Of a stretch of DNA of 64,000 bases, positions 39,658 through 60,028 are shown one piece after another. Location of the stretch: the NCBI GenBank assembly GCA_037308085.1, contig CP147779.1, positions 1,024,001 to 1,088,000 of the forward strand, written 5' to 3'. The notes beneath the pieces were generated by a model, which did not search any database, was not told the DNA's origin, and saw only the letters and a list, made by a program, of their open reading frames with translations. The DNA comes from Promethearchaeati archaeon SRVP18_Atabeyarchaeia-1 (GTDB lineage Archaea; Asgardarchaeota; Atabeyarchaeia; Atabeyarchaeales; Atabeyarchaeaceae). Numbering within the stretch: the stretch's first letter is position 1; every line of letters begins with the position of its first letter. Made by a program: the position numbers and the translations under genes.

Positions 39658-40227
39658 GTGGCGAGCAAATTGCGCGAAAACCCCGAGATACGTCCAATGC
39701 GTTTGGAGTACGTTGAGGTCATAAAGATCATGGTGATAGGCGAAGGCGGCGTAGGAAAGACAACACTAATACATCGGTTCGTGACTGGCGAGTATTCAGA
39801 CCAATCCATGACAATCGGGCTTGGGTTCGCTTCCAAGACTATGAAAGCCAGGGATGGAAAAACGGTCAAGCTTCAGATATGGGACGTTGGCGGCCAGAGC
39901 CGCTTCAGGCTCCTCCTGCCTTCTGCGAAAGGTGGCGCGAAGGGAATAGTCCTGGTTTTTGATCTCTCTGTCCCCTCAACATTCATTAAGCTCGATGATT
40001 GGGTCAGGCTTGCCAGATCAGGATTTCCACCGGACAAATCCATCCCAATTGTGCTCGTGGGTGCAAAGTGCGATCTTGCAAGGCAAGTGATGGCCGATGA
40101 GGCAAGAAGGTTCGTTGCGAGAATGAAGTTAGATGGATACGTGGAAACAAGCTCGAAAGCTAGAATCATGATTGAGGAGCCATTTGCGAGACTTCTCCGG
40201 CTGATCACTCTAAGAAAGAATTGTTGA
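39658..40227 (+). CDS. Rab/Ras-like small GTPase
   Basis: GEGGVGKT, TIG, IWDVGGQ, GAKCD, ETSSK. Confidence 0.92.
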   Translation: MASKLRENPEIRPMRLEYVEVIKIMVIGEGGVGKTTLIHRFVTGEYSDQSMTIGLGFASKTMKARDGKTVKLQIWDVGGQSRFRLLLPSAKGGAKGIVLVFDLSVPSTFIKLDDWVRLARSGFPPDKSIPIVLVGAKCDLARQVMADEARRFVARMKLDGYVETSSKARIMIEEPFARLLRLITLRKNC

Positions 40228-42990: not shown

Positions 42991-45402
42991 TCATCTAGAT
43001 GAGGTTTTGGAGTTTTTCAGCATGTTCTTGAGTCTTTCTTGTTTTCTCTTCTGTGGGAAGCCAATTTCGCTGTAGAAGGTTTTAATTGCTTCTTTCGCGC
43101 CTATTTGCAGAGCCCACAAGACACCGTAGCCCCCTTCCCTTTTGTAAATCTCCTTTGGGCGCTCATTGAAGCCAATCCCAAAATCGCCTGTCAGGATTCT
43201 TGCCTCCGACTCCAGGATTTGTGGGCGTATCGAGTCTAGTGTCTCTTGGATGTCTTGAGGTAGATCTTTGAACATGTAGTACTTGACGCCTTTCTTATGC
43301 AGGTCGGCTTTGCGCGTCTTTCTCTTCCATTGTTCGCTCATGATATCAAGGCGGTTCCTCTGCTCGACCGATAGATTATGAGTTCCATCTATGGCTCTCT
43401 CCAATGTTATTATTCCGCAATGTGTCGAAGGTGATCCTTCGTCACCGAAGGCTTGTACCAGCCACTCTCGTTTCATTTCAGGTGACCCTTGTCGTATAAA
43501 CGCCGGTATGTCCGGGTTTTGCAGAATGATTCTGCCAGTTACTGCCCCTGATCTCTGTAGTGTGTGACCAACGATGTCTGTTGTTGCGCGCAGTCTTGGG
43601 ATCCTACCGTCGTCGAATATTCTGTCGGTAATGTTTGGGTCGCCGAATATGTTTCTTAGTGATTCCGCGATCCTTCTTCTTTGTTCGTCGTCTTTGTTTG
43701 TGTATTCGAATCTCGGTCCTGCGCGTTTAGGTGTGTGAATTGATCCGTCTGAGTATCTTGCTGCCATGATTCTTGCTCCGTGTGGGGTTCTTAGGTTGAA
43801 GGGGAGTTTTGGGTTTTTGATTGCTCTGGCGTTTCCTATTGCTGCGGTGTGGTGGTTTGGCTCGTCGAGGTCTCTGCCGAGGTATCTAAGGATTGGGATA
43901 AGTTTGTTGGCCACCATGCCGTCCATTCGTTCGCTCAGTTGGTCGTTTAGGTATTTGATTGCGATCTGTGTTTCTCTTTTCCTGAGTTCGTTTCGGAGTT
44001 GTGTTTTTCCTCCTGCTTTGTTTATTGCTGCGTGTAGTAGTTCATGTTTGTACTCTTTGTCGAGGTAGATGGCGATTGTTTGTGGCAGTGCGTACCATGG
44101 TGTTTCGTAGGGTGGGATTGTCTTGTTTTCTGTTGGTATGTGGAGGGTTTCTTCCCCTTGCCTTGTTTTGTATCTGTAGAGGTGTAGGTTTCCTACCTTT
44201 TCTGCTTCGATGGTTGTGATCTTGTATTCTTGGTTTTGGTATTCTATTGTGATTGCTTTGCCCTCGAGTTTGAAGGTTGTTTTTTCGCGTGGTTTTGGTG
44301 GGGGGTGTGTTTTTTCGGTGAATGGTCTGGGGGAGAGGGCTATGCCATCTGTTCTCACGGTTAGAGTTTGGGCTTCTCCTCTTCTTGCCGTTGTTAGCAG
44401 CTTCTCGGTGGCGTCTTCGCTGAGTCTTATCGCTTTGTTTTCGATTTGCCCCGTAGCGAGTATTTTCCCTTGTTGTGTTTGGATGGCGATACTTGCGTAG
44501 TCTCCGTCTCTGACTTTGAGGCCGAGTTCTTCGAGTTTCTCGGTGAGCTGTATTCTTGTTTCTCCGCTAGTTGTGGTTGGTGTGACTTGGATGCCATGTG
44601 TCCAGGGGGGCTCTCCGGGTCCTCTCACGTTTAGGACATGGACATTTACTTTGTCTCCTGTCTTGATGCCTAGGTTTTCGATGTCTGCTTTCTTGATGTT
44701 TGCTCTTGTTCCCTTCACCACTGTTAGCACGGCGATGGCTTGGACGCCGTCCTTCTCGAGCAGCGCCGTTATTATGTCTCTTCGGTGGAACTCGACGTTT
44801 GTCATGGGGTCAAGCTTTAGGTAGAATGTCTGCTGGGCTTGACTGTAGTCTACTCTTGCGCAGGGGTTTCGTGTACTCTCAATAAACGCGTCGATGCTAT
44901 AGGCTGCTCCTTTCCACTTTATGGCTATGTCTTGGCTTTCGGGTGATTGGAGGCTCCTCAATGCTTGCTCCAGGTCTTTCCCGGCCATGCGTGATAGTTG
45001 CTGTAGATCCTTTAGGGCGATGTGTTCTCTGTTGCTCTCCCAGTAGAACACTTGACTCTCACTGTATCCTAGCTCATGAGCAAGCCTGTGCCTGCTGAGG
45101 CCTAGCTCTGTGCGCCACACTCTAACTAATTCACCTGCACCAAGCACCCACGCATCGTGAACCCTTGTCTTGCTCAGCTCGGTTGTATTGGTTGCTTGTT
45201 CTGCTGCCGCCCTGTCGGTGTTGCTAAGGTGCTCTGTATTGGTCCTTGCAGAAGCGTCACCGTCGCCTCTTGTCTTGGTGCTTTCCGTTGTCTCCCCCTG
45301 CCCATGCGTGTCCACGTCATTGGGTTGTTGTTGTGGCTGCTGCTCTGATGCTTGTGATGGTTCTCGCCCGCATTCCGCTATTTTCGTGCCCTCGTTCTCC
45401 AT
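42991..45402 (-). CDS. Multidomain protein: low-complexity N-terminus, XRE HTH, AbrB-like segments, two-motif LAGLIDADG
   Basis: WRTELGLSRHRLAHELGYSESQVFYWES; LGIKTGDKV; IMAARYSDG and WLVQAFGDEG; FYSEIGFPQKRKQ. Confidence 0.78.
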   Translation of the reverse strand: MENEGTKIAECGREPSQASEQQPQQQPNDVDTHGQGETTESTKTRGDGDASARTNTEHLSNTDRAAAEQATNTTELSKTRVHDAWVLGAGELVRVWRTELGLSRHRLAHELGYSESQVFYWESNREHIALKDLQQLSRMAGKDLEQALRSLQSPESQDIAIKWKGAAYSIDAFIESTRNPCARVDYSQAQQTFYLKLDPMTNVEFHRRDIITALLEKDGVQAIAVLTVVKGTRANIKKADIENLGIKTGDKVNVHVLNVRGPGEPPWTHGIQVTPTTTSGETRIQLTEKLEELGLKVRDGDYASIAIQTQQGKILATGQIENKAIRLSEDATEKLLTTARRGEAQTLTVRTDGIALSPRPFTEKTHPPPKPREKTTFKLEGKAITIEYQNQEYKITTIEAEKVGNLHLYRYKTRQGEETLHIPTENKTIPPYETPWYALPQTIAIYLDKEYKHELLHAAINKAGGKTQLRNELRKRETQIAIKYLNDQLSERMDGMVANKLIPILRYLGRDLDEPNHHTAAIGNARAIKNPKLPFNLRTPHGARIMAARYSDGSIHTPKRAGPRFEYTNKDDEQRRRIAESLRNIFGDPNITDRIFDDGRIPRLRATTDIVGHTLQRSGAVTGRIILQNPDIPAFIRQGSPEMKREWLVQAFGDEGSPSTHCGIITLERAIDGTHNLSVEQRNRLDIMSEQWKRKTRKADLHKKGVKYYMFKDLPQDIQETLDSIRPQILESEARILTGDFGIGFNERPKEIYKREGGYGVLWALQIGAKEAIKTFYSEIGFPQKRKQERLKNMLKNSKTSSR

Positions 45403-45744: not shown

Positions 45745-48700
45745 ATGGCAATAAGATTCGTCGGGGGTTCTCCTCCAAGCGATGAGGAGACTTTTGGGAA
45801 GCTGCGCCCGTACGTGGCTGGGTGGTTCAAGGAGAAGTTTGGGGAGATGACTCCCCCGCAGAAGTACGCTATTCCTCTGATCCAGAGGAACGAGAATACG
45901 CTGGTGTTTTCCAGCACGGGGTCTGGCAAGACCTTGGCCGCCTTCCTGTCCATGATAGACAAGCTGTTCTCGATGGGTGAGAGCGGTGAGTTAGAGGAAA
46001 CTGTTTATGTCCTCTATGTTAGTCCCCTCAGGGCGCTTAACAATGATATCAAGCGGAACTTGATGGTTCCACTTGAAGGTATAAGGGAGACTTCGCGCAG
46101 GGCAAATGTGGAGTTGCCCATGATAAATGTGGCTGTGAGGACTGGGGATACGCCGCAGGCTGAGCGGAGCAGAATGCTTCGCCACCCGCCTCATATACTG
46201 ATAACGACTCCTGAGACGCTCTCTATAGTCCTTAACTCGCCCAAGTTCAGCGAGCGCCTAAAGACGATTAAGTGGGTGATTGTCGACGAGATCCACGAGT
46301 TGTGTGACTCCAAGAGAGGAGTTCACTTGTCTCTTAGCCTTGAGCGGCTCCAACACCTTATTGGCGGTGACAAGGAGTTTGTCCGAGTCGGTTGCAGTGC
46401 GACTCAGGCCCCGGTGGATGAGATAGCCAAATTCCTCGTGGGGTACCGGGATGATGGTTCTTTTAGAGACTGTAACATAGTTGATGTCTACTCTACGAAG
46501 TCGCTTGACATTGGCGTTATCACGCCAGTCTCAAATCTCGCGTATGCAAGCTACGACTCTGCAACAGACAACATGTATGAGCTTCTGAAAAAGCAGATTG
46601 ACTCGCACACTACGACACTCGTTTTTACGAATACTCGTAGCGGAACGGAGCGTATCGCCTTCAGGCTCAAGGAGTTGTATGGCGATGAATCCGTGGATCA
46701 GCTGGCAGCCCACCATGGCAGTCTGAGCCGTGATACGAGGCTCGATGTGGAAGAGCGCCTGAAGAAGGGGCAGCTGAAAGCGGCTGTCAGCTCAACTTCC
46801 CTTGAACTCGGTATAGACATCGGGTACATAGACTTGGTCTGCCAGATTGGTAGTCCCAAAAGCGTCGCTAAGGGCTTACAGAGAATCGGGAGGGCAGGGC
46901 ATGCGCTTCATGAGACTTCCATCGGTCGCCTGCTCGTTTTCGACCTTGATGACCTTGTCGAATGCACAGTATTGGTTAAGTCTGCCTACGAAGGGAAGAT
47001 CGACAGGGTTGCGATACCGAGAAACTGCTTGGATGTATTGGCCCAGCACTTGGTGGGTATGAGCATCGAATCGAAGTGGACTCCAGATGATGCATTGAGA
47101 CTGATTAGGCGTTCCTATTGTTATCATGAATTGCCTAAAGAGGATTTCATGGGTGTAATCAGGTATCTGGCAGGGGAGCATGTTAACCTCGAAGAACGCG
47201 GGGTGTACAGGAAGTTATGGTTTGACGAGGATCAGCAGGTTTTTGGTAGGAAGAGAGGCGCACGGATGATATACTTCCTGAACATTGGGACTATCCCCGA
47301 AGAATCGAATTACAGGGTTCTCCTTGAGGAGTACAGGAATCCGTTGGGGCAACTGTCGGAGAGCTTCGTTGAGCGGCTTCAGCCGGGCGACATTTTCGTG
47401 CTAGGTGGCAGAGCGTATGAATTCAGAAGAACAAGTGGCATGAAAGTCTATGTGAGGCCCGCCTTTGGTCGGCGCCCGACGGTTCCATCATGGACTGGGG
47501 AAATGCTTCCAAGGAGTTTCGACTTGTCATGCGAGATCGGCAAGTTCCGGCAGGTAATAGCTGGTAGGATTAAGAAGGAAGGTTTGGATGCTACGAAGAA
47601 GTGGCTTCTCGAAGAATACCGGGTTGACGAGAGATCTGCAGACAGCATGATCGTGTACTTCAGGAACCAGCTTGCGATCACGGGAACAGTGCCAACAGAC
47701 AAGAGGATCATGATTGAAGGGTACATCGACAAGAGAGGGAGACTCAACATAATCTTCCACAGCGTCTATGGTCGTCGGGTGAATGACGCACTGAGCAGGG
47801 CATACGCCTATGCCATAACTAGGGTCTCAAAGGTGAATGTGGGCACAGCGATTCTGGACGATGGATTCGTCATCACTCTTCCAGCAGGAAGAATGATCGA
47901 CTTGAACAGGGTTCCGCTACTCGTAAACCCTGAGAATGTCGAAGACTTCATCCGCAAGGCAATTAGAAAGACGGAGCTTTTCAAACAGAGATTCAGACAC
48001 TGCGCAGTAAGAAGCTTCATGGTTCTAAGGATGTACAAAGGGTGGGAGATATCTGTAAGCAGACAGCAGACCAGGGCGATAAAGGTCCTTGACCTGCTTG
48101 AGGGAATGGAGGACTTCCCCGTCGTAAAAGAGACTTACCGAGAGATACTTGAAGACGACATGGATCTTCCAAACGCAAAGAACGTTATCAACGGGCTAAA
48201 GAGCGGAGATATCGAGTCTAGGGTTCTTCCGCTCACTGACGTGCCTTCCCCATTCTCACACGGTCTTATCCTCGTTGGGGCTGAAGACGTGGTGTTAATG
48301 GAGGATCGCGAAGCATTATTGAGAGAGTTGCATCGGCAAGTCCTTTCAAGGGTAATAGGCGAAGCTGGGGAAGTGCTCTTCTCGGAGGAGACCGTTCAGG
48401 CTTTGTATAACCAGAGGCAGCACTTAACTCCTGAAACACAAGGGAAAGAAAAGGAAGACATAGTACGAATTCTGCATGATATAGGACCGGCGGAGATATT
48501 CCGAGACACATATCCCACGATCTTGAACAGAATGGCAGTTGATCCTGAGACCGTTAGCCAATGGGCTGAGGAGCTCGTAATGGAGGGTCGAGTAATTATC
48601 ATTAGAACTCCAAAAGGGGAGAGCTTCGGAGTTACGACAGACGACTTCGTAACCTACTATCATGTTTTCAGGAGTGCGCCAGGCGAGCTCGATGAGCTTG

Positions 48701-51700
48701 AGAAAAACATGCTGAAGGCGTTGGAAGTCAAACCTCTCAAAGCCAGCGAACTAATGGTATCGCTGAATTCCGGTTACCCCCATGTTAGGAGAGCATTGCG
48801 AAGACTGGAAAGGGCCATGCTCGTAGTGAGATCAAAGTATTCGCCGAAGGGATCCGCAAGGGAGCAAGCTCTTGAGACAACGTGGAGTCTCACGTCGAGG
48901 CATCTCCCGAGCCAGGTTTTTGCCAGTGTGGAACATGCCGATCCTGAGGAGGAGAAAGAGAAGGCCGTAAAGCATTTCCTTAGGTCCTTTGGTCCATGTG
49001 TCGCGTCGGAAGTGGCCACTCACCTCAACATGTCAGAAGAAGAAGCAGAAAAGATCTTCAACCGCCTAGAGAGGATGGGCGATGTACTGAGTGGATATTT
49101 CATACCCTCAAAGCCGCCTCGCCAGTACCTCCTTGCCGAAGACAGGGAACTACTAAAGCAGATAGAGAAGAGTCGAGAACCCATTCGTTTCCCAGAGGCA
49201 GTGGTGACCCAGCTAGTCTTGGAGAAGCAACATCTAACTCCCACCACGAGAGGCAAGGGAGAAGAAGACATAGTCACAATGATCGCCGAGCTGGGACCAA
49301 TACAGTCGCACAGAGCTTTGTACCACAGGATCGAGAAATTCGATCTAGATACACTGAGAAGGCTTTGGGCTTCCGAGAAGAAGCTAATGTTGGGCAGATT
49401 CACGGAGAGAGGTCTATCATATATCCGTACAAGTGACTTGCCGATCTACGTAGCGCTGAGAGAAGCTAACGGAGTATTGCTCTCAGACCTTGACAGACTT
49501 GTATTGGGCATCATAGAAAAGGAGAATCCTATAACCAAAGGCAGAATAACGGCATTGACCGGGCTTGAAAAACCCACGGTCGAGGAGAGTCTGGAAAGGC
49601 TTGAAGAATCTCTGCTGGTTTTGAGGACCGTCCCTTACGACATGGAGCCCGAGGCCCAGCAAGTAATCCTGTACGAGCCTGCGGGTAACTATACTTCGCA
49701 GTTTCAGAAACTCTCAAGAAGTGAGGCGCTTAGGACTCTTATCCAGCGCACCATTGAAGGACATGGGATGATCACAATACAGGGCATAATATCATTAACT
49801 AATCTTCCATACGACGAAGTCGAAAGCACCCTGTCGGCACTCAGGAGAGAGAGACTGATTGTCTCAGGGCAATTCATTGAAGGCATACCAATAGAAACCT
49901 ACCTCGTCGCGAAGGATCTCCAAAGGTTGAAGGAACTCGGCAGCGAGTTTGCTGTCGGCGGGACGAAGGAGGGTGAGATCCCATTTGAGGGCAGGATCAT
50001 GGTGGATGTCCTCGGCAATTTGGACCCCTATACTTGGAGGGTTGCCCAGCAACTGTCAGACCTCTATGGAAGTGCTTTTCTTAATCCGATAGTGGTTGAC
50101 GGCGTGCTTGTAGGGGCAGCCGACCTTCATGTTACCCAGGACCTATTGCACGTAGCTGACCTAAAGGTGTCTGAACTTCTGCTCGAAAAACCTGAGCTGT
50201 TGGAAAAAATCGCGAAACGATTCATCGAAATCGCTTCATATTACGGGCTTATGGCTGCGGAGGTCGAATTTGTCTGGGGGCAGCCGGCCGTTACAGAGAA
50301 AAACGAGAAACTGGTCAAGGTTTTCACCGAACTCGGCTATGAGATCGTTGGCGACAGGCTCTGTTGGGGAGAAACGCCTTCAGAACTATTCGACGAGCAG
50401 GTTGTCAGGGTATTTCAGTTTAAGAAGCAACACGTGGATCCAGAAACCCGGGGTAGAACAAGAGACGATGTCTATCGGATAATGCGGGACATCGGTCCCA
50501 TATGGACCCCCTGGGAGGAGAAGCTTAGCATTAGAGTGGAGGATTTGAGAAGAGAATGGGTTGAAGAATTGTTGAAGAAGGATAGGGTACTAGTCGAAGA
50601 TACTCTGCTTGGGTCAAAACCGATGCTTCTTCCGGTGAAAGACTGGCCGACTTACTGGTGGGCGTGCAAGACACCTGTGAAGCTTAGCTTAGATGCGGTG
50701 AAACTACTGAAAGTAATAAGAGAGAATGGTCCGATTTCGAAAAAGTCGCTCATTAGGAAGTCGCTGATGCACCAGTTAGACGTAGAACACCTTCTGTCGA
50801 TTCTGTGCCAAATGAGACTGATCACGAACATAGGAAACTCGACAACTGCGGGAATATGGGTCACTATTGACCAATGGCTTCCGGCAACGGTGAAGCTGGA
50901 GGACTATGTTGAGCCACATGAGGCGAGAAGGAGGATCATCCTCAGGCTTCTTAGAAGCTTGGGTCCATTAACGGTATCGCAGTTACGTGAGCTTACGGCG
51001 CTTCACTCAAGGCAGGTAAGACTAGTTCTCTCGGAACTCAGAGATCAAGGAATCGTGGGACTTGGTAGGTTCCTGAGATCTCCCAGGACGCAGATACAGT
51101 TTGTCGCTCTTGAGGACTTGGAGGAACTGCATTCCATCTCATCAATGGTGAAGGACGGAGACTATGGGAGAACGACCCGTGCTTTTACGGTACCGCCGGG
51201 CGATCCACTCTACTACGCCCTGAAGGACGAAATCAAAAGCACCTTCAGAACGGGATGGTGCTATACAGTGGTTCTAAATGACGATCTGGTCGCCGCCTTC
51301 AAATCAAAGGGAGCAAAGAAGAAACACTTCATAATAACTGATCTATTAATTCAAGGCAAGCAGGTCGAGAGGAAAGAAGTCATCCTAAAGATCATCGGCC
51401 AAATAGATGAAACTGCTAGATGCGTCGGATCCCTTGACATCGAAGTCAAGAGTATCAACGAGAAACCCGTGACCTATGAAGGCAACCAAAGTATTGTGGA
51501 GATCTTCAAGTCTGCGGGCTACAAGGCTGGCGGACTAGTTCTCTACAAACCTTTCTCAGTATCTATTCAGCCAAGCGGCAAGGAGGTTTTCGCCGAGGAT
51601 GTTTGCGTAGAGTTCTTGATGCGTAGGCAACATCTCTCTCCGCAGTACAAGGGTAGAGGAAAGGATGAAATACTCAAGGTTCTGCACGACATAGGACGTG

Positions 51701-52782
51701 TGGAATGGTCTGACTCGATTGCAGTCCGCATAGAGGAATTCAACCCCAACGATCTCGATGAACTGAAGTGGAAAGATCAAAAGATTGTTCACGGCAGATT
51801 TCTGAATGAGAACCTGACGCAAGTCCCAACCGACGAGCTACTCGAATACTACTATGCTTCGAGGTCCCCCTCATTCGTTCTAGGATACGACGATCAACGG
51901 ATTCTTGAACTGCTAACCAAGTCTGGGCCTCTAGAAGAAAAGGAGATAACGGCAAGAACTGGTCTAGATCCGGAGACTGTACGTGGATCCCTGGAAAACG
52001 TGGAGAAAGCCGCTAGAATAGTTAGAGTCAGAAAAGGTGACTCGCACTATACAACTGATAGCTGGTTCTACGATGTCATCGACCACTACCTGCCAAGCGG
52101 TTCATCACAATTCGAGAGCACGAGTCCGAAGGACGCGAGAAAGAAGATCATACTGAAGTTTCTTGCAGCAAACGGCCCTGTGAGCTTAAGGCAAATCGAG
52201 GAATGGTCACACATGGAGTTAGCTGAGATCAAATCAGTTCTATCAGAGCTTGAGGCAGAAGGAAGAATCTCCTCAAACGTCTATGTCGAAGGGGTCGCAG
52301 GCAGAAGATATGTTAGAAAGGAGGACCTGCCAGAACTGAGATCACTAGAAGAGCTGTACCTCAGCCAGAAGCTCACCAACGGGGCGCCCTACTATGTCAC
52401 ACTTCCGAACTACGACCCATTAATCAAAACATGGAAAGACGAGCTGCTCAGAGTTTTCTCAATTGGTCTAATAGAACTTGGAGCAGACTACTATATGTTG
52501 ACACTTAGATCAGGAAAACCGGTGGCTGCTATACAAGTCCACTTTGAGGTAAACACCATGAGGATACACGACATGGAGCTGCTCGACTCGCTTGACCTCA
52601 GAATTGTGCAAGACGTGATCAAGGACATAGAGAAAACCGCGCATGACTCAAGAAAAATGGAGTTGCAGATCGAGCGCATAAGCGGTAGAGGAGCCCAGGA
52701 TAAGCTGAATAGGCAGAGAGTCGAGACATTTCTTGAGAATGGTTATCGACTTAATGAAGGAATCCTGCGTAAGAAACTATAA
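45745..52782 (+). CDS. lhr: Giant Lhr helicase with four C-terminal AlkZ/HTH_42-like modules
   Basis: TGSGKT, SPLRALNND, DEIH, SAT, HHGSLS, TSLELGID, QRIGRAGH, GTIP; repeated QHLxP..G..DI...DIGP units. Confidence 0.93.
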   Translation: MAIRFVGGSPPSDEETFGKLRPYVAGWFKEKFGEMTPPQKYAIPLIQRNENTLVFSSTGSGKTLAAFLSMIDKLFSMGESGELEETVYVLYVSPLRALNNDIKRNLMVPLEGIRETSRRANVELPMINVAVRTGDTPQAERSRMLRHPPHILITTPETLSIVLNSPKFSERLKTIKWVIVDEIHELCDSKRGVHLSLSLERLQHLIGGDKEFVRVGCSATQAPVDEIAKFLVGYRDDGSFRDCNIVDVYSTKSLDIGVITPVSNLAYASYDSATDNMYELLKKQIDSHTTTLVFTNTRSGTERIAFRLKELYGDESVDQLAAHHGSLSRDTRLDVEERLKKGQLKAAVSSTSLELGIDIGYIDLVCQIGSPKSVAKGLQRIGRAGHALHETSIGRLLVFDLDDLVECTVLVKSAYEGKIDRVAIPRNCLDVLAQHLVGMSIESKWTPDDALRLIRRSYCYHELPKEDFMGVIRYLAGEHVNLEERGVYRKLWFDEDQQVFGRKRGARMIYFLNIGTIPEESNYRVLLEEYRNPLGQLSESFVERLQPGDIFVLGGRAYEFRRTSGMKVYVRPAFGRRPTVPSWTGEMLPRSFDLSCEIGKFRQVIAGRIKKEGLDATKKWLLEEYRVDERSADSMIVYFRNQLAITGTVPTDKRIMIEGYIDKRGRLNIIFHSVYGRRVNDALSRAYAYAITRVSKVNVGTAILDDGFVITLPAGRMIDLNRVPLLVNPENVEDFIRKAIRKTELFKQRFRHCAVRSFMVLRMYKGWEISVSRQQTRAIKVLDLLEGMEDFPVVKETYREILEDDMDLPNAKNVINGLKSGDIESRVLPLTDVPSPFSHGLILVGAEDVVLMEDREALLRELHRQVLSRVIGEAGEVLFSEETVQALYNQRQHLTPETQGKEKEDIVRILHDIGPAEIFRDTYPTILNRMAVDPETVSQWAEELVMEGRVIIIRTPKGESFGVTTDDFVTYYHVFRSAPGELDELEKNMLKALEVKPLKASELMVSLNSGYPHVRRALRRLERAMLVVRSKYSPKGSAREQALETTWSLTSRHLPSQVFASVEHADPEEEKEKAVKHFLRSFGPCVASEVATHLNMSEEEAEKIFNRLERMGDVLSGYFIPSKPPRQYLLAEDRELLKQIEKSREPIRFPEAVVTQLVLEKQHLTPTTRGKGEEDIVTMIAELGPIQSHRALYHRIEKFDLDTLRRLWASEKKLMLGRFTERGLSYIRTSDLPIYVALREANGVLLSDLDRLVLGIIEKENPITKGRITALTGLEKPTVEESLERLEESLLVLRTVPYDMEPEAQQVILYEPAGNYTSQFQKLSRSEALRTLIQRTIEGHGMITIQGIISLTNLPYDEVESTLSALRRERLIVSGQFIEGIPIETYLVAKDLQRLKELGSEFAVGGTKEGEIPFEGRIMVDVLGNLDPYTWRVAQQLSDLYGSAFLNPIVVDGVLVGAADLHVTQDLLHVADLKVSELLLEKPELLEKIAKRFIEIASYYGLMAAEVEFVWGQPAVTEKNEKLVKVFTELGYEIVGDRLCWGETPSELFDEQVVRVFQFKKQHVDPETRGRTRDDVYRIMRDIGPIWTPWEEKLSIRVEDLRREWVEELLKKDRVLVEDTLLGSKPMLLPVKDWPTYWWACKTPVKLSLDAVKLLKVIRENGPISKKSLIRKSLMHQLDVEHLLSILCQMRLITNIGNSTTAGIWVTIDQWLPATVKLEDYVEPHEARRRIILRLLRSLGPLTVSQLRELTALHSRQVRLVLSELRDQGIVGLGRFLRSPRTQIQFVALEDLEELHSISSMVKDGDYGRTTRAFTVPPGDPLYYALKDEIKSTFRTGWCYTVVLNDDLVAAFKSKGAKKKHFIITDLLIQGKQVERKEVILKIIGQIDETARCVGSLDIEVKSINEKPVTYEGNQSIVEIFKSAGYKAGGLVLYKPFSVSIQPSGKEVFAEDVCVEFLMRRQHLSPQYKGRGKDEILKVLHDIGRVEWSDSIAVRIEEFNPNDLDELKWKDQKIVHGRFLNENLTQVPTDELLEYYYASRSPSFVLGYDDQRILELLTKSGPLEEKEITARTGLDPETVRGSLENVEKAARIVRVRKGDSHYTTDSWFYDVIDHYLPSGSSQFESTSPKDARKKIILKFLAANGPVSLRQIEEWSHMELAEIKSVLSELEAEGRISSNVYVEGVAGRRYVRKEDLPELRSLEELYLSQKLTNGAPYYVTLPNYDPLIKTWKDELLRVFSIGLIELGADYYMLTLRSGKPVAAIQVHFEVNTMRIHDMELLDSLDLRIVQDVIKDIEKTAHDSRKMELQIERISGRGAQDKLNRQRVETFLENGYRLNEGILRKKL
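48376..52779 (+). repeat. Four protein-level repeats starting at 48376, 49186, 50386 and 51586
   Basis: LFSEE..QHLTPETQG / RFPEA..QHLTPTTRG / LFDEQ..QHVDPETRG / VFAED..QHLSPQYKG. Confidence 0.85.
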
Positions 52783-52785
52783 ACG

Positions 52786-53430
52786 GTGGAGGAGATGTCG
52801 CGGGCAATGTCAATCTGGTTGAAATATAGAGAGGAGATGGCTCAAGTAAAGAACTACCTCAAGACAACTGCTCCTCATGGAGATGACTCGTTCTTCCCCT
52901 ACAGCGATCCCGCCTACAAGTGGGAGCACACCCTGATGGTTCTGAACAGCGGCCTGCTACTCGCCAAAGAAGAGAGGGCCAACATTGACGTCGTAGCCCT
53001 TGGAGCGATTTTCCATGACGTATGCTACTACACTGCAAGCTACGAAGAGCATGGGCACGAAGGATCCAAGTACGCCACGGAGTATATGAGGAAGAAGGGC
53101 TACCCGAATGAGCTTATTGCGAACGTATCGTACGCCGTAGGTGTTCATATTGGAGAAATGAATCCCAAGACTATAGAAGCTAAAATAATCCAGGATGCGG
53201 ACACACTTGACAAGGTTGGGGCGGTCGGCGTCGCCCTGATACTATTGAACGCGGGCGCAGGAAAGTTGCTCTTTCTCGACGCGATCAACAAGTACAAGAC
53301 TGAATATGTGAAGAAACTCGACTTCATGGTCAACTCTATGTGGACAAAGAAGGCTCGCCAGATAATGGCAGAGCGGACGAACTTTCTCACCGCCTACTTC
53401 AAGCAGCTTGAAAGCGAATTAACAAGCTGA
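52786..53430 (+). CDS. HD-domain phosphohydrolase
   Basis: EH, FHD, EHG, QDADTLD; 3 nt after the lhr stop. Confidence 0.9.
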   Translation: MEEMSRAMSIWLKYREEMAQVKNYLKTTAPHGDDSFFPYSDPAYKWEHTLMVLNSGLLLAKEERANIDVVALGAIFHDVCYYTASYEEHGHEGSKYATEYMRKKGYPNELIANVSYAVGVHIGEMNPKTIEAKIIQDADTLDKVGAVGVALILLNAGAGKLLFLDAINKYKTEYVKKLDFMVNSMWTKKARQIMAERTNFLTAYFKQLESELTS

Positions 53431-58425: not shown

Positions 58426-58639
58426 GAGTGAAGTGGTTCGAACCGTGCCTATTCCTCTCTATTAATGAGGATCCCTGCGCGAGGAAAGTTGCCACCAAAT
58501 TGAATGTGGATGGACACCTTATATTCCGACCTGCTCTATTGGTACTGAGTGACCTACAGTTGATATAGTGCGAGACTCCTGTCAAGGAATATCATAGATT
58601 AGGAAGGCGTTGCACAGAGTCCGATCGGCGGCTGGAACT

Positions 58640-60028
58640 ATGTCAAACGAATCCACGAAGAATGGTTATGCTGATGAAAAGAATTGGCTCGCTCCACTAC
58701 TAAGGGAGACGGGCGTCTCGGCAGCCGATCTGACCTATGATTTCAACTTGATAAAGGGAAGGGCCACGAAGAGCAATATGTGTGTCCTCTGCAAAGGTGG
58801 CAAGTTTCTTTGTGGCAAAACAAGATGCTCGGTACTGGCAAAAGCATTGACCTATAAGAAGATTGCGCGATCCATTGATAAGCTTGAGCTCGACGGAGCA
58901 TCTCCGCCCGGGGTCTTCATAGGAAGAATGGGTTACCCTAGGGTCTACGCTGGCCCTCTTGTTCCCCCAACTCATGGAGACACTTCGATCATGGATATTC
59001 CAGAACTCTGGGGGCCATGCGGATTTGCAAAGTCAATCGATGACATTATTGATTTTAGGCTGAGTCTCGTAAGGGGAAAGTCACGTATGACCGTTGATGC
59101 GGCAGCGTTAGACACCGGCAGCAGAATTATGGATGTAATAACGGAACTCGCCTTGGCAAGGGGTCCAGTTGAGACGGAAATGCTTCTCAGAAAGAAACCG
59201 AGTAGAACAGTATTGCTCGATGACGACATTCAGCCTTTTGGACCTTCGGCGCCAATCGACAAAGTGAAAGTCGGAAATGTATACTGGGATCCGCAGCTTG
59301 AGAAGGCTTACGGAGACCACGACCTAAAGGCAGCCGAGGCAGTGTCCTCGCTCTACGATAGCGGCGTGCTTGTATCCCGAATACAGAAGGCGTTCAGCGT
59401 TGGTGCCTTCGGAATCAAGAAGAACAGAAAACTCGTGCCAACGAGATGGAGCATAACCGCAGTCGACAGCCTCATATCAAAAACACTTCTGGAGAAGGTG
59501 ACTCTTCAGCCTCCCATCAATGAATACAGGATCTACGAGTCAAACTACCTTGACAACAGGTGGATCATTCTCATGGCTCCGCTATCATGGAGCTACGAAC
59601 TCGTTGAAGCATGGTACCCAGGCACCACGTGGAATCCCGACAGCAGTAACATCGTGATTTTCTCTGATCACGAAATGTTCGAGGGCAGAACAACTTACCC
59701 GGACATAGGAGGATGCTACTTCGCATCCAGGCTGGCAATAGCCGAGAGGCTCCTAGCAGAACGCCGCCAGGCAACCGTCGCCGTTCTGAGGGAGTCTCAT
59801 CCAGGGTACGTCCTCCCTGTGGGCGTCTGGTCTGTCAGAGAGAGTGTGAGAAATGCCTTGAGAAATCCCCCTATGAGGTACAACAACCTGCGTGATGCAA
59901 TCAGCCACATTTCCTCCAAGTTTGCGATACCACTATCCCGATGGCTCAAAACCAGCAAACTGCTCCAAGAGTTGCTGTATCAAACCAGGATAACTGATTT
60001 CCAGCAGTTGAGAACTTCGGAAGGGTAG
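58640..60028 (+). CDS. Nre-family DNA repair protein, copy 2
   Basis: CVLCKG..LCGKTRC, GASPP, LVPTRWSITAVD, PIP-like QTRITDF. Confidence 0.92.
   Translation: MSNESTKNGYADEKNWLAPLLRETGVSAADLTYDFNLIKGRATKSNMCVLCKGGKFLCGKTRCSVLAKALTYKKIARSIDKLELDGASPPGVFIGRMGYPRVYAGPLVPPTHGDTSIMDIPELWGPCGFAKSIDDIIDFRLSLVRGKSRMTVDAAALDTGSRIMDVITELALARGPVETEMLLRKKPSRTVLLDDDIQPFGPSAPIDKVKVGNVYWDPQLEKAYGDHDLKAAEAVSSLYDSGVLVSRIQKAFSVGAFGIKKNRKLVPTRWSITAVDSLISKTLLEKVTLQPPINEYRIYESNYLDNRWIILMAPLSWSYELVEAWYPGTTWNPDSSNIVIFSDHEMFEGRTTYPDIGGCYFASRLAIAERLLAERRQATVAVLRESHPGYVLPVGVWSVRESVRNALRNPPMRYNNLRDAISHISSKFAIPLSRWLKTSKLLQELLYQTRITDFQQLRTSEG

Follow-up and report, generated by a model that had tools for sequence, protein, structure and literature searches.

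According to Buckley et al. (PMC7437997), the helicase Lhr carries in bacteria a C-terminal region that is absent from its archaeal counterparts. The bacterial C-terminal domain has been described by Warren et al. (PMC8053096), and in mycobacterial Lhr it is needed in crosslink repair via quaternary structure, tetramerisation being essential (PMC9841417). Proteins with an HTH_42 domain are almost absent in archaea, where Bradley et al. counted 12 sequences (PMC9040887), and a three-module archaeal form of Lhr is known in the literature only as having 'an additional HTH_42 domain' (Hajj et al. 2021, PMC8301817). The gene considered here lies in a window of 64,000 nucleotides (nt; the whole stretch of DNA that was analysed) from contig CP147779.1 of the Asgard archaeon Promethearchaeati archaeon SRVP18_Atabeyarchaeia-1. 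It encodes an Lhr of 2345 amino acids (aa) in which an aLhr2-type helicase core is followed by four tandem AlkZ-like modules, named m1 to m4 in the following. This four-module protein is an extreme and lineage-specific case, the longest single-chain member of an archaeal Lhr subtype that is common and essentially undescribed. No description of tandem AlkZ-fold modules in Lhr was found in the literature, probably because Pfam under-detects AlkZ-like units; in a Methanomassiliicoccales example it finds only one such domain.

The protein is read from a single uninterrupted open reading frame (ORF) of 2345 codons with 0 internal stops, and its boundaries and those of its parts are collected in Table 1. 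NF010338, the archaeal Lhr equivalog, covers residues 12-871 with 1199.9 bits (cut-off 849), while the E. coli Lhr equivalog NF007284 is missed, with 542.3 bits against a cut-off of 1496. Within the core, Pfam recognises DEAD (36-223), Helicase_C (278-386), WH_Lhr (415-578, E 5.6e-37) and DEAD_assoc (649-838, E 4.3e-57), the last being the signature Domain 4, and the helicase motifs are intact, with motif I as GSGKT at residue 59, motif II as DEIH at 181 and motif VI as QRIGRAGH at 379. A scan of the complete genome returned one DEAD_assoc (Lhr) match only, and no AlkZ-like match above the cut-off was present outside the 2345-aa gene.

Downstream of the core, PF06224 (AlkZ-like) matches four separate stretches, and when the repeats are scanned singly each of them exceeds the cut-off of 25.9 bits (m2 with 35.4 and m4 with 51.2 bits; the other two in Table 1). 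The repeats begin at residues 878, 1148, 1548 and 1948 and share a mutual identity of 22-25%; in m1, residues 1065-1145 are also matched by the Pfam family WH4_Lhr. A preliminary description of this DNA, made from the letters alone, had proposed exactly this succession of one Lhr core and four AlkZ-like repeats, and the open frame, NF010338, PF06224 and the predicted folds reported below all bear it out. The same description had seen an exact period of 400 aa, which is true of one part of the pattern. Indeed, the start motif QH(L/V)xP stands at residues 892, 1162, 1562 and 1962, which gives a spacing of 270, 400 and 400 aa, and the 400-aa period is preserved in all orthologues. The DP motifs LDPY (1426), GDPL (1819) and YDPL (2223) are instead separated by 393 and 404 aa, thus the period is exact for the module starts only, with insertions and deletions that cancel out. 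In three-module relatives the spacings of the modules differ from 270/400/400. It also holds, as first noted, that repeat 1 ends before the DP-containing C-terminal domain, whose motifs are confined to repeats 2-4, and that GPIQ is kept by repeat 2 alone.

A frame of this length could in principle arise from a repeat misassembly, from the fusion of neighbouring genes or from an intein. Inteins do lengthen other very long Asgard Lhr ORFs (2513 aa in Baldrarchaeota and 1919 aa in a genome labelled Odinarchaeota), and an apparent frame of 2700 aa in another, Heimdall-type family consists of two genes split by a TAA stop. For the gene in the window, however, such an origin is extremely improbable. 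With a protein identity as low as that given above and no long DNA repeats shared between the four repeats, the array cannot collapse or expand in assembly; the frame is free of stop codons; and no intein domain is among the families that Pfam lists for the protein. Six further orthologues exist, with lengths of 2344-2353 aa. Those of 2344-2349 aa, found in other, independent assemblies, are 69-82% identical in the repeat region, and two species of the same family have frames of 2353 aa and 2247 aa, the latter cut at a contig end. The nearest named genome is that of Candidatus Atabeyarchaeum deiterrae isolate Atabeyarchaeia-2 (71% identity). Moreover, contigs from two different studies cross the gene without joints: one of 121 kb, which covers it entirely and identically and may be the source of this very DNA, and one of 8.9 kb, which covers nearly the whole of it. 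Both an assembly artefact and an intein were therefore rejected for the 2345-aa gene, the intein being the true source of length in the Baldrarchaeota and Odinarchaeota forms. Between 45881 and 52225, contigs of two runs depart from the window at scattered places by 1-nt indels and a few substitutions (for example at 47240 and 48547); each of these differences is confined to a single contig and resembles a strain variant or a long-read error, and the frame of the window is open.

Direct searches of PDB sequences were of little help, as phmmer with the C-terminal region gave nothing useful and a four-row profile gave only weak matches to 7LHL, and a comparison of folds was thus needed. The AlphaFold model of m1 and m2 (residues 872-1547, from a 77-row alignment) has a mean predicted local distance difference test score (pLDDT) of 89.7, and in it m1 is composed of three helix-helix-helix-strand-strand units. 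The top Foldseek matches of this model are 7LHL, the C-terminal domain of M. smegmatis Lhr (E 1.1e-14), 9zd6, an AlkX/YcaQ-DNA complex, and 5uuj, which is AlkZ. In particular, m2 aligns with 9zd6_A at Z 29.2-29.6 (by VIA-align with a root-mean-square deviation, rmsd, of 2.9 A over 329 residues) and with AlkZ 5uuj at Z 25.3 (VIA-align), while the whole m1 and m2 model aligns at Z 24.6 and over 520 residues with 7lhl_D (residues 893-1505), where m1 falls on the N-terminal subdomain of the C-terminal domain. The correspondence to the tetramerising C-terminal domain of bacterial Lhr, a domain mentioned in the preliminary description, is found at the level of the fold. A second model covers m2-m4 (residues 1148-2345), with a mean pLDDT of 81.2 and a predicted template modelling score (pTM) of 0.56, and displays the same secondary-structure pattern three times, m3 included. 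In this model m4 aligns with AlkZ 5uuj at Z 25.3 over model residues 800-1165, and 7lhl_A aligns across m3-m4 at Z 23.4; overall, the fold matches to AlkZ and AlkX have an rmsd of 2.9-3.9 A over 325-330 residues. Profile matches add that residues 916-1088 of E. coli Lhr correspond to m1 without the middle winged helix, and residues 1105-1410 to one full module. Collectively, these results show that m1 and m2 correspond to the C-terminal domain of bacterial Lhr and that m3 and m4 are additional AlkZ-fold units.

A further feature of the models concerns the C-terminal subdomain of each full module, which resembles acetyltransferases of the GNAT fold (Z 9.2-12.3, 110-122 residues) and has a GNAT-like order of strands and helices (in m3 and m4 within 50386-52779 of the window, in m2 at about 49950-50385). 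This subdomain of AlkZ-type modules is described in the literature as a beta-barrel, and no literature linking AlkZ to the GNAT fold was found. The acetyl-CoA motif Q/RxxGxG/A is not present at its canonical place, between strand 4 and helix 3, in these subdomains; the sole match to the pattern is in m4 at residue 2311, in a different loop.

When the protein is set beside the described bacterial Lhr with its winged-helix C-terminal domain (M. smegmatis 7LHL and E. coli), both have a core, then a winged-helix subdomain and then an AlkZ-fold unit, and both share the module-start motif QHLTPE. They differ in that the archaeal protein has two further AlkZ-fold units, m3 and m4, and in that the bacterial subdomain has two winged helices whereas m1 has three. 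The resemblance to the glycosylases AlkZ, YcaQ and AlkX (5UUJ, 9ZD6) lies in the three winged helices followed by a C-terminal domain, present in every full module of the window's protein, and in the DP motif that opens this domain. Each of the glycosylases is a protein of its own, about 370-410 aa long, and has a catalytic QxQ or QxD motif and a concave face that is basic, whereas in the window's protein the copies stand in tandem on the same chain as a helicase, the motif is missing, and of the three full copies two are acidic. Another close relative is the Methanomassiliicoccales aLhr2 with HTH_42 (PMC8301817), which has the same type of core, modules orthologous to m1, m2 and m3, and the same charge pattern of an acidic m2 and a basic m3. 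It ends after m3, with a shortened C-terminal domain, whereas the window's protein adds a complete m4; and it is credited with one HTH_42 domain by both the paper and Pfam, whereas Pfam detects all four units in the window's protein.

The distribution of these architectures was traced by a locus search across species-representative genomes with an alignment of Domain 4, m1 and m2, which returned at least 516 related loci, the best 80 of which were detailed. These 80 belong to Atabeyarchaeia, Asgardarchaeum abyssi, Heimdallarchaeota, Baldrarchaeota, Odinarchaeota and many Methanomassiliicoccales and other Thermoplasmatota. By iterated module profiles, most of the 80 consist of the core, m1 with winged helices only, a full m2 and an m3 that is either full or shortened in its C-terminal domain, with a total length of about 1800-1950 aa. 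Such three-module chains are the standard aLhr2-type protein in Methanomassiliicoccales and other Thermoplasmatota, and several Asgard lineages have them as well, while among the same 80 loci the fourth module is confined to Atabeyarchaeia. An exhaustive profile-free search with m2-m4 gave 112 representative proteins, about 40 of them with 1700-1950 aa, and only one 50%-identity cluster at 2344 aa. The preliminary statement that archaeal Lhr is usually core-sized has to be amended, as long multi-module forms are not rare. As to whether the architecture is an already described subtype, the three-module kin are widespread and essentially undescribed, and only the fourth module sets Atabeyarchaeia apart. 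A tree built from the winged-helix parts unites the m1 sequences of Thermoplasmatota with those of Asgard archaea, and likewise the m2 and the m3 sequences (support of 94, 91 and 87, respectively, in the Shimodaira-Hasegawa-like approximate likelihood ratio test, SH-aLRT); the m3 and m4 of Atabeyarchaeia are unresolved long branches, and the tree does not settle whether m4 derives from m2 or from m3.

Among Asgard archaea, a match was obtained in 46 of 400 genomes. A search with the core separates two classes of Asgard Lhr: the first, 51-66% identical to the core of the window's protein, ranges from core-only proteins of 849-890 aa up to the long forms, and the second, 33-36% identical and 940-976 aa long (loci L126-L136), is carried by most of the Asgard genomes sampled. 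No member of the second class was found in the window's genome, which has its single DEAD_assoc match in the gene described here. The Baldrarchaeota Lhr (L030:2808-10346) and the one labelled Odinarchaeota (L041:4038-9794), mentioned above for their length, contain LAGLIDADG inteins in the helicase core; in these forms there are two modules of winged helices only, and a C-terminal AlkZ subdomain is lacking. In addition, contigs labelled Dialister hominis (L092) and Bacteroidaceae bacterium (L094) encode archaeal-type three-module Lhrs of 1882 and 1847 aa; these are Methanomethylophilaceae-like and probably come from mis-binned archaeal contigs of gut metagenomes.

A different arrangement is present in the Heimdall-type family of Asgard archaea, 31 of 31 genomes of which gave a match. 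Those of its members that were looked at closely have a three-module Lhr of about 1915 aa that ends with TAA and is directly followed by the ATG of a protein of about 781 aa composed of two full modules, in which Pfam does not detect an AlkZ-like domain. The pair is seen at locus L025:6030-14156 and also at L011, L012, L026 and L028; the two genes are in the same frame, and a read-through product would have about 2700 aa. The Heimdall-type pair thus shares with the window's protein the type of core, m1-m3 and the presence of extra AlkZ-fold modules beyond m3, and differs in that these modules are on a separate polypeptide of 781 aa right after the Lhr stop instead of on a single chain, with five modules in the operon against four in the chain. 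Since a two-module protein directly follows a three-module Lhr in this family, the modules are likely to work together as an assembly.

This arrangement bears on a proposal that goes back to the preliminary description, namely that the protein is a single-chain substitute for the tetramer, monomeric, with AlkZ-fold units that pack in cis and replace the contacts between protomers. The number of full units per chain fits such a substitution, being 1 in bacteria (4 in the tetramer), 2 or 3 in archaea and 2+2 in the adjacent Heimdall-type genes, as does the dependence of mycobacterial Lhr on tetramerisation (PMC9841417); the pTM of the m2-m4 model may also be higher than would be expected if the three modules were placed wholly independently. 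Against this, the five models of m2-m4 are of uneven quality, their mean pLDDT ranging from 68 to 81, and we regard the substitution as rather unlikely. Modelling of m3 and m4 as separate chains gave a complex-prediction score of 0.01, which is evidence neither way.

The catalytic potential of the modules can be judged from the residues on which known relatives depend. YcaQ of E. coli requires both Gln45 and Asp47 (PMC7367128), and its Q45-I-D47 columns were placed on the modules by a profile alignment that included 7 orthologues. At these columns m1 has a hydrophobic residue followed by F and R/K, m2 has Q-T/S-H (Q-S-H in the window's protein, from Q1187 to H1189), m3 has P-W-E/D (P-W-E, ending with E1591) and m4 is variable, with H/Q/E-W/L-S/T (E-W-S), and the catalytic motif QxQ/QxD is kept in none of the four modules. 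As a glycosylase, E. coli Lhr requires in turn Asp1536 in its LDWG tail (PMC10953399). The tail of m2, LCWG, resembles that C-terminus, and the two proteins share the absence of QxQ, but the equivalent of Asp1536 is C in m2, Y in m3 and R/K in m4, and it is conserved in none of the modules; in the m2 tails of other archaea the position is taken by A, V or L. The DNA-binding surface of AlkZ and AlkX is positively charged (PMC13303869), and with respect to net charge the modules fall into two kinds, since m3 is basic, with pI values of 9.4 and 9.0 for its two halves, and the other three are acidic (Table 1). An acidic m2 and a basic m3 are likewise seen in 56 Thermoplasmatota proteins, with median charges of -15 and +4. 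Among the orthologues the modules are 60-84% identical and the core 81-93%; the modules, although less conserved than the core, are thus constrained and not decaying. In the third module of the Thermoplasmatota proteins (loci L031-L100) a GGLRSD motif is conserved, the R-S-D of which aligns with Q-I-D of YcaQ in 39 of 61 sequences, and in the second module of the same proteins that segment is deleted in 35 of 56 sequences.

These residues bear on the suggestion, also made at the outset, of a helicase that senses several lesions, which would deliver active DNA glycosylases, one in each full module and each specific for a lesion of its own. In all three full modules the AlkZ/AlkX fold is predicted to be complete, C-terminal domain included, and the C-terminal domain of E. 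coli Lhr acts as a uracil-DNA glycosylase without QxQ (PMC10953399). The motif position is moreover conserved as Q-x-H in m2 and P-W-E/D in m3, and the Thermoplasmatota m3 keeps the Asp of R-S-D in the proportion given above. Nonetheless, no module has both of the residues that YcaQ needs, the position of Asp1536 is occupied by other residues in all three full modules, and the negative charge of m2 and m4 is at odds with the positive DNA-binding surface of AlkZ and AlkX. The suggestion is weakened by these results, to which the net negative charge of m1 can be added, and appears unlikely.

We lean instead, by a modest degree, towards a repair helicase with a mostly non-catalytic array for DNA recognition and scaffolding. 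The protein would be an aLhr2-type helicase, predicted to be ATPase-competent and to act 3'-to-5' on DNA and RNA:DNA in repair, whose C-terminal domain may have been extended module by module: m1 and m2 would represent the bacterial Lhr C-terminal domain, archaeal relatives would have added m3 and Atabeyarchaeia m4. The modules would be old and diverged paralogues under purifying selection in which the AlkZ/YcaQ catalytic motif was lost or never present, and for this reason the array is probably not a set of three glycosylases. Given its charge, the basic m3 could be the likeliest unit to bind DNA or the lesion, while the acidic m1, m2 and m4 may serve as scaffold or protein-contact units that place the helicase at damaged or branched DNA. 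Several points count against this preferred reading. One or more modules may have a non-canonical active site, as the motif columns hold an invariant Q and H in m2 and an invariant acidic residue in m3; net charge captures a DNA-binding surface only crudely; and the placement of the modules relative to each other is only moderately confident in the m2-m4 model.

The considerations on active site and on assembly can also be combined, in that the AlkZ-fold units would form a body of countable units that replaces the tetramer, in cis with three full units in Atabeyarchaeia and in cis and trans with 2+2 in the Heimdall-type family, and m3 would carry a new, non-QxQ site for lesion recognition or excision, represented by R-S-D in Thermoplasmatota and by P-W-E/D in Atabeyarchaeia. 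Taken as a whole, this combination seems doubtful to us.

Table 1. Position of the Lhr gene, of its parts and of neighbouring genes in the window
Feature	Coordinates	Strand	Description	Basis
Whole gene	45745..52782	+	2345-aa Lhr with four-module C-terminal array	open frame; stop codon 52780-52782
Lhr core, residues 1-871	45745..48357	+	RecA1, RecA2, WH1, Domain 4	NF010338, Pfam, motifs
m1, residues 872-1147	48358..49185	+	half module: three winged-helix motifs, no C-terminal domain	PF06224 44.3 bits; net charge -9
m2, residues 1148-1547	49186..50385	+	full AlkZ fold: three winged helices and C-terminal domain	fold match; net charge -18
m3, residues 1548-1947	50386..51585	+	full AlkZ fold; sole basic module	PF06224 58.4 bits; net charge +10
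m4, residues 1948-2345	51586..52779	+	full AlkZ fold; Atabeyarchaeia only	fold match; net charge -10
HD-domain gene	52786..53430	+	phosphohydrolase, 214 aa	Pfam HD, E 8.5e-12
HTH protein gene	42991..45402	-	803 aa, divergent from Lhr	HTH_3 (sole Pfam match)
Nre gene	58610..60028	+	archaeal Nre	Nre_N and Nre_C
Small GTPase gene	39658..40227	+	Ras/Roc/Arf type, 189 aa	Pfam Ras, E 2e-37

With regard to the neighbourhood of the gene (Table 1), an HD-domain phosphohydrolase gene starts 3 nt past the Lhr stop codon and is possibly co-transcribed with Lhr, and a 69%-identical copy stands in the same position in a sister genome. The preliminary description had regarded this hydrolase as coupled to Lhr, which is right as to adjacency but is not supported as to function: a BLAST search with the HD protein through the ORFs at 88 related loci gave a match in the sister genome alone, and the gene was rejected as a conserved Lhr partner. 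The gene order around Lhr, where the HTH protein stands upstream and where an AMP-binding enzyme and Nre stand downstream, recurs in no genome but the sister genome, thus pointing to the synteny of close relatives and not to a functional link. The HTH protein itself has a 69%-identical copy upstream of Lhr at the corresponding place of the sister genome. The Nre gene, of a family associated with DNA repair, shares the strand of Lhr and follows 5.8 kb downstream of it, and the sister genome keeps the order Lhr, HD, AMP-binding enzyme, unknown ORF and Nre. Finally, the Ras-family GTPase gene near Lhr is typical of Asgard archaea and fits the Asgard origin of the DNA.

All in all, in many Thermoplasmatota and several Asgard lineages the C-terminal domain of Lhr is even larger, with two or three AlkZ-fold units, and the number of units shifts between lineages, at times by way of a separate partner gene. 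The resulting series of 0, 2 (winged-helix only), 3, 4 and 3+2 modules represents a natural test set for the role of the Lhr C-terminal domain, for which oligomerisation, lesion recognition and catalysis are the candidates, and the Atabeyarchaeia protein, coming from a closed genome, is the extreme single-chain case. If the combined reading of a body of countable units with a new site in m3 were true, these proteins would constitute an unrecognised archaeal machine for helicase-coupled repair of crosslinks or base damage in the lineage closest to eukaryotes.

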